64,000 bases of DNA from Octopus vulgaris (taxonomy: Eukaryota), in NCBI GenBank assembly GCA_951406725.2, contig OX597818.1, positions 27,466,001 to 27,530,000 on the forward strand, given 5' to 3'. Made by a program: the position numbers and the translations under genes. Of the stretch, positions 4,231 to 62,115 are shown piece by piece. Position 1 is the first letter of the stretch, and each line of letters starts with the position of its first letter. The notes beneath the pieces were generated by a model, which worked only from the letters and a program-made list of their open reading frames with translations, did not search any database and was not told the DNA's origin.

Positions 4231-4485
4231 CTTCACCTGAAAGGATAAAAATCAAGAGTGATGAACCCTTTCTTGAAGGCCAAGAAGGCAATTTGCATTG
4301 TGAGACAATAAATGGATATCCAGAAAAATATAATTACAGGTGGAATCCAAATAACAGTACCTCAAAAAACATCACACTTCCTCAAATTCATCGAAAACTA
4401 AATAACAAGGTTTACACATGTTATGTTTCATCTAGATGCTATAAGAAATGTAGATTACATAAAAAGCATTGGATCAATGTTGAAT
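4231..4485 (+). CDS. IgSF receptor, Ig-domain exon 1 in window (phase 1-1)
   Basis: Acceptor ttttttcag|, donor |gtaagt. Reads SPERIKIKSDEPFLEGQEGNLHCETINGYPEKYNYRWNPNNSTSKNITLPQIHRKLNNKVYTCYVSSRCYKKCRLHKKHWINVE, with Ig hallmarks L-x-C, W and Y-T-C. Confidence 0.9.
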
Positions 4486-5344
4486 GTAAGTTGAAATCTT
4501 AAAATTTTATTATACATCTATGAAATAATTTATTATTTGCATTCAATACAGAAAAGTACTGTGATCTTTTTATATTCATTTTTCTTAAGATTACTTTTTA
4601 TTATGAAATTTCTTCATGATTAATTTTCTTTGTTTTTCCAAAATAACTTGAAATGGAAGTTTTTGATAAGTCTACTTCCTCACAACATGTTTCTCTGAGT
4701 CACATTTTGTTTACTGATACTGTACATTATGTTACTGATACTGTACATTATTTACATAAACATTATATTCACTGTCTCTTCTAACAACACATTGCTATTC
4801 AGATTATACTACCTTTTACTCCAACTCAACCTTCCACACAACCTTGTTACATAATGACAAAATTATGATTTGTCCATTAGCAGAGGCTTTTAAATCATCC
4901 TCCATTGGGGTCATGACAAAATAGCATTCTTTATAAGCATTTTTAAATGTAATCACAACACATATTAAAGAATAGTCTTGCAACTCTGTACCTTTTCTGT
5001 GCATGAACAACATACAACTAAAACCCTGAAAACTATTAAGTCTCTAATGATACTTTATTGTAAATACATATATAATTTTGTCAATACAACATTCCAAAGA
5101 CTAAACTTATTCTCCCGAGTTGGAAAATATTTCAGCTCTGATCAGTTTATTATCCTCTTAGAAAAAAGCCCACATTGGAATACTGCTCTGATATCTGGGA
5201 TAGTTCTGCTGCTACATGTACATACACACATTGTAGACAACATCCCTTAAAAGGATTCACTTTATAACATATAACAACTTGGAACCTTCAATTTTTTCTC
5301 CTTCCTCTCTTCATCTCTTCTACCATACCTATTTCTTTATTACC

Positions 5345-5562
5345 CACTAGGGGCTAAACACAGAGGGGACAAACAAGGACAGACATAGGTATTAAGTCGA
5401 TTACATCGACCCCAGTGCGTAACTGGTACTTAATTTATCGACCCCGAAAGGATGAAAGGCAAAGTCGACCTCGGCGGAATTTGAACTCACAACGTAATGC
5501 AGACGAAATACCGCTAAGCATTTCGCCCGGCGTGCTAACGTTTCTGTCAGCTCGCCGCCTTC
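5345..5562 (-). mobile_element. tRNA-derived SINE with a Nin-type central domain
   Basis: Reverse complement contains gagttcaaattccgccgaggtcgactttgcctttcatcctttcggggtcgataaattaagtaccag. Related copies at about 41110-41320 and 57445-57622. Confidence 0.75.
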
Positions 5563-5993
5563 TACCATACCACTTCCAACCAGACTTATCTGATGCATAT
5601 AGCTGTCCTTTTATCATTATCTTAGGTTTTATTCCCAAGCCCTGTACTAACTACTTTATTCATTCTTTTTATTTTGGAAATAAAGCTCTGCAAAACTTCC
5701 TTCTTGATATTTTCTCTATAATCATAAATTTGCAGGAAATCAAACTAAACATCAACATCATCAACTTAACTGATCTGAGATGTTCTGCAAGTATCATAGA
5801 TACTGTTTCTCCTTCTCTGATTAAATAAAGATCTCTAATATTGGTAGAAGGCCTGGTATTTTGGGACAGTATGTAGTTTTTAAATTGACCTCAATATTTA
5901 ACTGGTAATTAAATGAAAATTGTAACAAAAAGTTGCATGATATTTTGTTTGAGCTCTACCAATCCTTCTACTGCCCTTCTCTAACTAACTAAA

Positions 5994-60640: not shown

Positions 60641-60961
60641 AACTTCTCTAACAAAATTAATATTTTGTTTATGGAATAAAATTTCAAATGCCACTTTACT
60701 GAGAAATCTTCTCTGCAAACTCTAATTTTAAAATACCATAATACTAACCTTCTTTCCACTTTTTCATATGCAATGAATTTATTCAGCACGACTTTTCATT
60801 TTCTCAAGACATCAATGTGAGGATGAAGAACGTATACTGTACATTAAAGTTTGGCTGTATTTTAAATAAGTTTTCTAAATACTTGTTTCTATATATATAT
60901 ATATATCATCATCATTTAATATCAACCTTCCATGCTGGCATGAGTGGGGTATATATATATA

Positions 60962-61526
60962 TTGGGTTGTCCAGAAAGTTTGTGCCAATGTTTAAAGGAA
61001 AGAAAAAGGTCAATAAATACTTGCCATTACATTTTTAATCAACCAAATATGAACCATTTTGTTGCACAATGCATCTCCATCTTCCTTTAACTTGAAAATA
61101 CCCTCTTCCCAGAATTGAGGTGGTTTCATGGCAAAGAATTCATCAAGGTATCTTTTTATGTCATCCAAGGAATTGAAATTTTTACCATTAAGACTATTCT
61201 GCAGAGACCTGAATAAGTGAAAATCCGAAAGAGTAATATCTGGTGAATATGGAGGGTGGGGTAACACATCCCAGCCGAGCTGCAGCAATTTTTGTCTGGT
61301 TTCCAAAGCATCAAGTGTTGAAACTGAACTTTCTTACCTTCCATTTTAAAGGGTTACAGAATTAACACAGGTTATAGGAACATAAACCTTCTTCCACGAA
61401 AAGATAGCTCAAACTGTGCTCTAAATGGAGGTGTAGTCAAATCCTATTTTATGAACTCAACCATGTTCTAAAATAAGTCAAAAGGTAAGCTACTATAAAT
61501 CGGCATGAACTTTCTGGACAACCCAA
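60962..61526 (-). mobile_element. Internally deleted mariner element
   Basis: TA|ttgggttgtccagaaagt...actttctggacaacccaa|TA. Reads TRQKLLQLGWDVLPHPPYSPDITLSDFHLFRSLQNSL. Confidence 0.9.
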
Positions 61527-62055
61527 TATATTTATATATATATATATATATATATATATATATATATCTTATAAGCAAGGGCTAAAGAAGGTTATTCTAA
61601 AGCCAATATACTGATATTCCACATTTAATCTACTTGCTACAGAAAGTTGAATTGAAATTCGGGCAACTAAACCTTTGGAACATTTAAATTTCGTTATCTC
61701 AATATTGAATCAATTTCGGAATTAACCACATAAGGGTTCGTTCGTCTTCAGTTGAGCTTACAAGAGAATATAAGTAAGATACTCACATGCGCCTCTGGAA
61801 ATAGCCGAAGCGAATAACACAAGTACATCTAAGTAACCCAATTATATCCAAAAATAAAAGTTCTTAGGTTAGTCTCAGGACAACATGTTGACTTCCCGCC
61901 ACTACATATTGTAGTGGTAACAAGTCCCCCTGCAGCACATATACATATATACCTATAAAATGTATTATATTTGCTACTTTCTGTGCAATAAAGAAATAGT
62001 TAAAGCATTCTCCCCAAACAATAAATATGCTTGTTTTATATTTAATTTCTTGAAG

Positions 62056-62115
62056 CTGTGGAAGATTATTATGTTGAAGTCAGTGAGTTGAAATATGCGT
62101 GTATGAAACACCCTG
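62056..62115 (+). CDS. Cytoplasmic microexon type A (60 nt) with both tyrosine sites: AVEDYYVEVSELKYACMKHP
   Basis: tttcttgaag|ctgtg...cctg|gtaagt. Confidence 0.88.

Follow-up and report, generated by a model that had tools for sequence, protein, structure and literature searches.

Octopus receptor genes of the immunoglobulin superfamily with cytoplasmic tails apparently assembled from duplicated tyrosine-motif exon cassettes

A stretch of 64,000 nucleotides (nt) of the Octopus vulgaris genome (GenBank assembly GCA_951406725.2, contig OX597818.1, positions 27,466,001 to 27,530,000 of the forward strand), hereafter the window, carries part of a gene whose product is a type I receptor with eight immunoglobulin (Ig)-like domains. 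The cytoplasmic tail of this receptor, which is disordered, is encoded by an array of small exons, and, as read from the genomic sequence, its modules of 14 and 20 residues have been amplified by duplication of an exon cassette and pruned by loss of splice sites and of tyrosine (Tyr) codons. The gene is a member of a family which, judging by genome comparison, has grown in Octopus to form a tandem cluster and which probably serves cell-surface recognition of immune or self/non-self kind. On balance it is considered probable, with little assurance, that the product is a recognition receptor from a paired-receptor-like cluster, with a tail acting as a scaffold for SH2 domains, whose docking sites would differ in number between genes through duplication of cassettes and within one gene through in-frame exon skipping. 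The gene is already annotated and is unstudied, and a cassette-built tail evolving by birth and death was not found described in the literature searched; it provides an unusually clear example of signalling motifs that evolve in this way as exon cassettes.

The exons of the extracellular and membrane-spanning parts that lie in the window are the following (positions are those of the window):

4231..4485, + strand: exon of Ig-like domain 5, 255 nt, phase 1-1
10459..10707, + strand: exon of Ig-like domain 6, 249 nt
15645..15899, + strand: exon of Ig-like domain 7, 255 nt, GC donor
17858..18163, + strand: exon of Ig I-set domain 8, 306 nt
24493..24597, + strand: transmembrane (TM) exon, hydrophobic, 105 nt, phase 1-1

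Each of these five exons is phase 1-1 and has a length divisible by three. Upstream of the window, over up to 28 kb, there are a leader exon and four further Ig-like exons, and on the 3' side the array of the window is followed by a 42-nt copy that is dead, an exon of 56 nt in phase 1-0 and a pair of alternative last exons. The first-pass annotation, made from the letters of the window, had reported 11 small exons after four Ig exons and one TM exon; all of them are present where it placed them, and its Ig count is right for the window, which holds only domains 5-8, and has to be raised to eight Ig-like exons for the whole gene. In the protein (P0028) the Pfam families Ig_3, I-set and Ig_2 score above cut-off, and the predicted structure contains helices at residues 2-21 and 766-800, corresponding to the leader and the single TM segment. 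The model of the whole protein (mean predicted local distance difference test, pLDDT, 49; predicted template modelling score, pTM, 0.29) is too poor for fold matches to name the family. The model of the N-terminal domain, D1 (pLDDT 65), is a beta-sandwich with best matches to T-cell receptor V domains at Z 4.5 and 4.4, with nothing found at Z ≥ 5 or, by Foldseek, at E ≤ 0.001. As a separate observation, the domain 7 exon with its GC donor is absent from the database protein CAI9722591.1 (P0020), where domain 6 is also shortened.

The tail is encoded by two types of small exon, designated A and B:

33217..33258, + strand: A-type exon A1, 42 nt, Tyr changed to Cys (codon TGT), also without Tyr in O. 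bimaculoides
40493..40534, + strand: A-type exon A2, 42 nt, YDNL
42361..42420, + strand: B-type exon B1, 60 nt, YIEV, second Tyr lost
43216..43275, + strand: B-type exon Bq, 60 nt, YFEV, second Tyr lost
43916..43975, + strand: B-type exon Bk, copy 1, 60 nt, YVCM, first Tyr lost
45592..45651, + strand: B-type copy of Bq, 60 nt, weak donor (GTAAAA at 45651), probably decaying
47053..47112, + strand: Bk copy 2, 60 nt, 60/60 identical to copy 1
52100..52159, + strand: Bk copy 3, 60 nt, 60/60 identical, forming with A3 an intact B+A cassette
52396..52437, + strand: A-type exon A3, 42 nt, YANI, giving YxxM-x8-YxxI after the Bk splice
59928..59969, + strand: A-type exon A4, 42 nt, YVNV
62056..62115, + strand: B-type exon B9, 60 nt, both Tyr kept (YVEV, YACM)

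These 11 exons (four of 42 nt and seven of 60 nt) span 28.9 kb, and all are bounded by AG and GT, have phase 1-1 and a length that is a multiple of 3, and end in G, just as had been described at first pass. The accompanying claim of intact splice sites is borne out by the AG/GT ends of all 11 and fails for the strength of the donor at 45651, and the remark that the junction codon can never be a stop is true and not special, because a final A, found in 17 of the 73 exons called across the family (see below), cannot begin a stop codon either. The exons were also sought by a fixed rule that asks for 42 or 60 nt, a pyrimidine tract followed by AG, GT[AG]A[AG], an open frame and no fewer than 3 acidic residues. 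Applied to positions 24701-64000, it returned ten exons on the + strand and one on the - strand, compared with a mean of 0.1 (maximum 1) in 30 shuffles; the eleventh exon of the window fails this rule solely at the acidic-residue filter. The small-exon array is not a product of chance. With 42 and 60 nt the exons fall outside the definition of neural microexons (27 nt or less, under eMIC/SRRM-type regulation), and just the 42-nt class passes the looser cut of 51 nt or less. The expectation that they would be missed by annotation proved wrong, since ten of the 11 are held in the same order by CAI9722591.1 and XP_036359229.1, the former of which may come from the same genome and hence is not independent; the exon at 45592 is in none of the three parsed O. 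vulgaris/O. sinensis database proteins. It was also observed that the acceptor is AAG after a short T-rich tract, not CAG or TAG, in 11/11 exons of the window and 67/73 called exons of the family; such acceptors may weaken the small exons and favour skipping.

The consensus of the A type is YxN[V/I], and that of the B type has a pair of Tyr at a distance of eight, of which the second stands in YxxM/L. According to the textbook consensus, phosphorylated YxN binds Grb2 and phosphorylated YxxM binds p85, and SH2 binding by the tail is predicted from these motifs. In counts of module copies that are not independent of each other, Tyr is kept in 38/42, the Asn at +2 in 36/42 and Pro in 37/42 copies of A, and the second Tyr in 19/23 copies of B. 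The description of the exons as phosphotyrosine-motif modules suits most of them, which carry Tyr, and not the exon at 33217; in three modules besides A1 one of the two Tyr codons was lost by single base changes, to GAT, AAT and CAT.

The unit of the array is a two-exon cassette, B (60 nt) plus intron plus A (42 nt), with a B-to-A distance of 273-315 nt in 13 of the 22 measured cases. The window has one intact cassette (52100/52396) and one with a dead A (42361/42657), and the traces of decay and duplication in it are as follows:

33525..33585 (approximate ends), + strand: decayed B-type copy, no intact exon
42657..42700 (approximate ends), + strand: decayed A-type partner of B1, not intact
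50640..50699, + strand: dead Bq copy, duplicate of the exon at 45592, donor lost
56240..56300 (approximate ends), + strand: dead B copy, frameshift and donor lost
44579..52205, no strand: recent tandem duplication, 44579-47158 against 49629-52205, 97% match

A second duplication with a 3.1-kb offset (43473-44247 against 46639-47384, 90% match) together with the 97% one gave rise to the three identical Bk exons; an assembly artefact behind this triplication was ruled out, as three copies are present in the O. sinensis protein too. The order of modules in O. bimaculoides differs from that in O. vulgaris, and module A5, alive in the former, has lost its donor in the genome of the latter. Elsewhere on C5, at 27679213 and 27868570, the B acceptor is lost and database proteins use a downstream in-frame AG, the exons being 6 or 9 nt shorter and retaining the second Tyr (read by eye). 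Traces of mobile elements were also noted, namely a mariner-type transposon remnant inside the array (about 52570-53790, - strand; Pfam Transposase_1, E 1e-20), a Pif1 helicase 2B fragment at 898-1140, probably Helitron-derived, and four open reading frames resembling by eye hAT, long terminal repeat or long interspersed nuclear elements (43896-44210, 47033-48175, 36599-38201 and 34778-35293), which had no Pfam match at E ≤ 0.01 and one of which adjoins Bk copies 1 and 2.

The use of the modules can be followed in the O. bimaculoides orthologue, for which 15 isoforms are listed of 16 cluster members, all products of database annotation; isoform models of this kind rest on RNA data. All 15 differ in the tail, and the ectodomain with the TM segment is single and invariant. 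Each of their tails resolves without remainder into 4 to 11 whole modules; the tails carry 3-5 YxN and 1-4 YxxM sites, and vary in the first residue of a module (V or I) with the upstream neighbour, because phase-1 junctions demand it. Two paralogue clusters vary too (nine tails in 15 sequences, and three in five), and all three O. vulgaris/O. sinensis proteins have the same tail. Among sequencing runs searched with the Ig8 exon none of RNA was listed, which speaks neither for nor against splicing. The database models therefore support in-frame skipping of modules, by which one ectodomain would carry 4-11 of them, and the gene model and combinatorial skipping proposed from the window gain support from the 15 distinct tails.

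The orthologues, which the first-pass annotation could not name, are LOC115212119 (O. sinensis) and LOC106869178 (O. bimaculoides), both labelled uncharacterised. Searching proteins with the Ig8 exon yielded 18, and all 16 that have a species name are from Octopus; a genome search with the same exon gave 13 matches at 12 loci, seven on C5 at 27.5-29.3 Mb, four near-identical ones distributed over C28 and C31, and a broken one on C15. Profiles of the A and B exon types found 101 matches in 664 kb around eight arrays, of which 73 passed as intact exons (42 nt long in 43 cases, 60 nt in 25, 63 nt in four and 34 nt in one) and 28 did not, the caller preferring 42 and 60 nt, so that the frame bias of the intact count is not independent evidence. 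Outside Octopus homologues were found in Argonauta (43%) and Sepia (33%), and beyond these, among ten looked-up hits of 126, there were only generic multi-Ig proteins below 30%; on this thin sampling the family looks coleoid-restricted. The divergent paralogue at C5:29.3 Mb (P0009) amplified another Tyr module (YAKV, 51-nt exons), and the Sepia homologue has its own Tyr repeat of about 19 residues at the protein level, so motif-cassette birth and death may recur, the modules differing from paralogue to paralogue, and cuttlefish possibly being a further case. From 3156 candidates a search for shorter proteins resembling the tail kept a single one, which is the orthologue of O. sinensis, and the best score of an atlas search with the tail was 0.78, below lead level. 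The earlier annotation had missed that the gene belongs to a family, that the array stems from a cassette and that a single paralogue is of inhibitory type. No paper was found on this family, on its six locus names or on octopus or cephalopod microexons in a literature search outside which most subscription papers and all supplements lie; the loci could be named in a supplementary gene list.

Several observations concern the other members of the family. The Ig8 copies at C28:8.04, C28:10.69, C31:6.82 and C31:9.16 Mb (L073-L076) are identical at 299-300 of 300 nt, and there are twin tail arrays at C5:28.58 and 28.76 Mb; these copies may be either very recent segmental duplications or uncollapsed haplotypes. 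The number of Ig domains differs between paralogues (C5:27.59-27.63 Mb, P0012 and others), some database models being without domains 3-6 or 5-6, and a second distant cluster at C5:98.63-98.76 Mb (L068-L070; P0075) has 31-40% matches to Ig domain 2.

In the proposed mechanism a fast-changing N-terminal domain would bind a ligand and the receptor would cluster; Src-family kinases would then phosphorylate the acid-preceded tyrosines of the tail, pYxN would recruit Grb2-type adaptors and pYxxM the p85 subunit of PI3K, and a B-to-A Tyr pair could possibly bind the tandem SH2 domains of the Syk family. Gene copy and exon choice would set the strength of the signal, and, in the manner of paired receptors, a paralogue with a two-Tyr last exon would be the inhibitory counterpart coupled to SHP2. 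Five paralogues compared with each other are 47% identical in D1, 71% in D2 and 75% in D8, and between orthologues identity is 80% in D1 and 93% in D8, a gradient such as may be expected of a ligand-binding tip. The genome encodes SHP2, a Syk-like SH2 exon and the p85 iSH2 region; three of 20 fetched SH2 pieces were tested. Three neighbouring SH2 exons at C3:157.80-157.89 Mb (L104-L106) are Csk-like by eye.

Drift alone is a serious rival, itself judged somewhat unlikely: the receptor would be real and need a few Tyr sites, and the array would be a by-product of local tandem duplication with frame-neutral exons retained or skipped in a noisy way, the number of isoforms being without selected meaning. 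A number of results weigh against the mechanism given above, and part of them speak for drift. The ratio of nonsynonymous to synonymous substitution rates (dN/dS) among the five paralogues is 1.17 (0.87-1.63) for D1, 0.88 (0.58-1.51) for D2 and 0.67 (0.43-1.11) for D8, and because all these intervals include 1 positive selection on D1 is not shown. For the A modules dN/dS is 0.91 and for the B modules 1.11, and the columns of the exons vary at about the rate of those of the flanking introns (A 4.12 versus 4.72/3.98; B 2.11 versus 2.33/2.71). Four module types lack one Tyr, the P0020 tail has none of the strict tyrosine-based motifs of immunoreceptors, be it that of activation (ITAM), of inhibition (ITIM, S/I/V/LxYxxL/V/I), of the switch type (ITSM, TxYxxV/I) or hemITAM, and the Grb2 candidate SH2 scores about equally with SHP2 and Grb2. 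Drift would also agree with the 28 of 101 profile matches without an intact exon by the rule used, with the unusual AAG acceptors of 67/73 exons, with the identity of the three Bk copies and with the different module order between species. Against it, the Tyr, Asn+2 and Pro columns are retained more than their neighbours, and amplification recurred, in the 51-nt Tyr exons of the divergent paralogue and in the Tyr repeat of Sepia. It seems that the motif cores are kept and the remainder is drifting or diversifying. Of the earlier proposal that exon choice is a signalling code, one part stands, namely that YxN and YxxM counts differ between database isoforms, and a selected, regulated code is not shown, given a module dN/dS near 1 and exon columns about as changeable as those of flanking introns. 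If the near-neutral rates do mean drift, the array is still a good case of symmetric-exon accumulation, of less importance.

A more specific form of the recognition reading, considered unlikely, is that cephalopods possess a paired-receptor complex of their own, in which an inhibitory Ig receptor of ancestral type, coupled to SHP2, stands beside several activating paralogues that are young and change fast in their ligand domains, together with a splice-assembled ITAM-like YxxM/L-x8-YxxV/I. This double-Tyr site would be in no single exon and would be made only by the splice from a 60-nt to a 42-nt exon, so that cassette duplication and exon skipping would set the number of kinase-docking sites (1-3 in the orthologue isoforms). 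The B-to-A splice sets YxxM/L and YxxV/I twelve residues apart, which is ITAM spacing, in 19 of 20 neighbouring Tyr-bearing pairs, a count that is not independent proof of function because the spacing follows from descent from one cassette; all 15 O. bimaculoides isoforms keep 1-3 such pairs. The strict ITAM (YxxL/I-x6-8-YxxL/I) has no match in 11 tails examined; the form that does match, across the B-to-A junction, is a relaxed one allowing M/V. Paired receptors (PIR/LILR/SIRP) come as clusters of paralogues that are alike in the ectodomain and opposed in the type of tail, and of these features octopus displays the cluster and a single-copy two-Tyr last exon as against YxN/YxxM arrays, the opposite signalling being predicted only. 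That last exon belongs to the 29.3-Mb paralogue and has two Tyr motifs 24 residues apart, a near-match to an ITIM/ITSM pair; it is single-copy in the genome (one match of three candidates), it aligns with the end of the Argonauta homologue, which has a strict ITSM, and no remnant of it was found in 50 kb downstream of the window gene. The single ITIM-like site of O. bimaculoides sits in module A5. One paralogue alone appears to keep an ancestral ITIM/ITSM-like last exon, which with the fast D1 gives a paired-receptor pattern; as the family tree supports three of eight inner branches and leaves the placement of Argonauta and Sepia open, the label "ancestral" is drawn from the tail alignment and not from this tree. 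If true, this would be a candidate octopus system of pathogen or self/non-self recognition with splicing dialling signal strength.

In the literature searched no diversified Ig-type immune or recognition receptor family was found described for cephalopods, and the accessible part of a 2025 review of the invertebrate Ig superfamily names neither octopus, cephalopod nor squid (PMC11999971). The octopus cluster is a concrete testable candidate for such a family: its N-terminal domain is variable, one of its tails is of inhibitory type and several are of activating type, and the partner enzymes are present in the genome.

Quite improbable is a neural or epithelial adhesion or wiring receptor of the nephrin/SYG/Echinoid type, signalling through Grb2/Nck and PI3K to the cytoskeleton and having no immune role. 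This would be consistent with the eight Ig-like domains, which include a weak C2-set_2 match, with the generic multi-Ig proteins as best distant hits, among them an Ig+FN3-like Sepia protein at 27% (FN3 read by eye), and with the Dscam, contactin and Sidekick structures found at low TM-scores by the fold search with the whole model. Such receptors are usually conserved, whereas the octopus family has at least 12 paralogues with an ectodomain dN/dS of 0.7-1.2, and no solved structure among the PDB chains matches P0028 at E ≤ 0.001. Very improbable is that the isoform diversity is largely an annotation artefact of short reads mis-mapped across near-identical duplicated exons: the near-identical Bk and A3 copies do make the Bk1>A3b and Bk1>Bk1 junctions ambiguous and the O. 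vulgaris/O. sinensis proteins share one tail, but skips of the unique exons A1, A2, A5 and Bq cannot arise by mis-mapping, and the junctions TM>A2, TM>B1 and A3b>C, which skip unique exons, appear in both the XP_0528 and the older annotation series (two records are common to both).

Known systems resemble the octopus recognition receptor in different respects. In Dscam1 the diversity is in the ectodomain, one exon being picked per tandem cluster by mutually exclusive splicing. The octopus gene is like it in that isoform diversity comes from tandemly duplicated exons in an Ig receptor, and the contrast drawn at first pass is right: in 15 isoforms the ectodomain is invariant and tail exons are included cumulatively. 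The domains of PECAM-1 are present in PDB, and the search of PDB chains with P0028 found no sequence homology to this protein. Splicing of tail motifs in Ig and recognition receptors is already established, namely in PECAM-1 and in Botryllus FcoR. The tail of PECAM-1/CD31 is encoded by exons 9-16 with Tyr in separate exons, and, in the accessible part of the report, alternative splicing alters its function and SHP-2 docks on it (PMC2132561). Like PECAM-1, the octopus gene encodes, according to database models, an Ig receptor with a multi-exon, alternatively spliced cytoplasmic tail; there is one conserved PECAM-1 gene, whose exons are not repetitive, whereas the octopus exons are young tandem duplicates of two templates, undergo birth and death across a cluster and carry YxN/YxxM motifs.

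As far as the available text describes them, the FcoR of Botryllus are multigene type I receptors related to the Sushi-domain fester proteins, in which ITIM, hemITAM and Tyr-core content varies by allele and alternative splicing and for which activating and inhibitory members are proposed (PMC11507803). There the switching is by intron retention or substitution and polymorphism is demonstrated, whereas in octopus duplicated in-frame cassettes would be counted, and the D1 divergence, taken from one genome, is between paralogues, not alleles. The Alr of Hydractinia, in the part of the source consulted, are clustered divergent members of the Ig superfamily with one domain per exon, Tyr motifs and alternative tails (PMC9546547); they have 1-3 Ig domains with an FN3-like segment, strict ITAM/ITIM and proven allorecognition, in contrast to the eight Ig-like domains and no strict ITAM of octopus. 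Allorecognition receptors of invertebrates such as Alr and FcoR are marked by high allelic polymorphism and haplotype variation, and Alr also by an N-terminal V-set domain; the beta-sandwich model of the octopus D1 has its best matches, all below Z 5, in V domains of T-cell receptors. The oyster CgIgR, likened to the octopus family by description, is a molluscan multi-Ig TM receptor whose two-Tyr motif is reported to act via Syk and ERK in haemocytes, with one classical ITAM and no exon array described in the accessible text (PMC6994640). By analogy, the octopus gene would work in outline like PECAM-1, FcoR, Alr and CgIgR.

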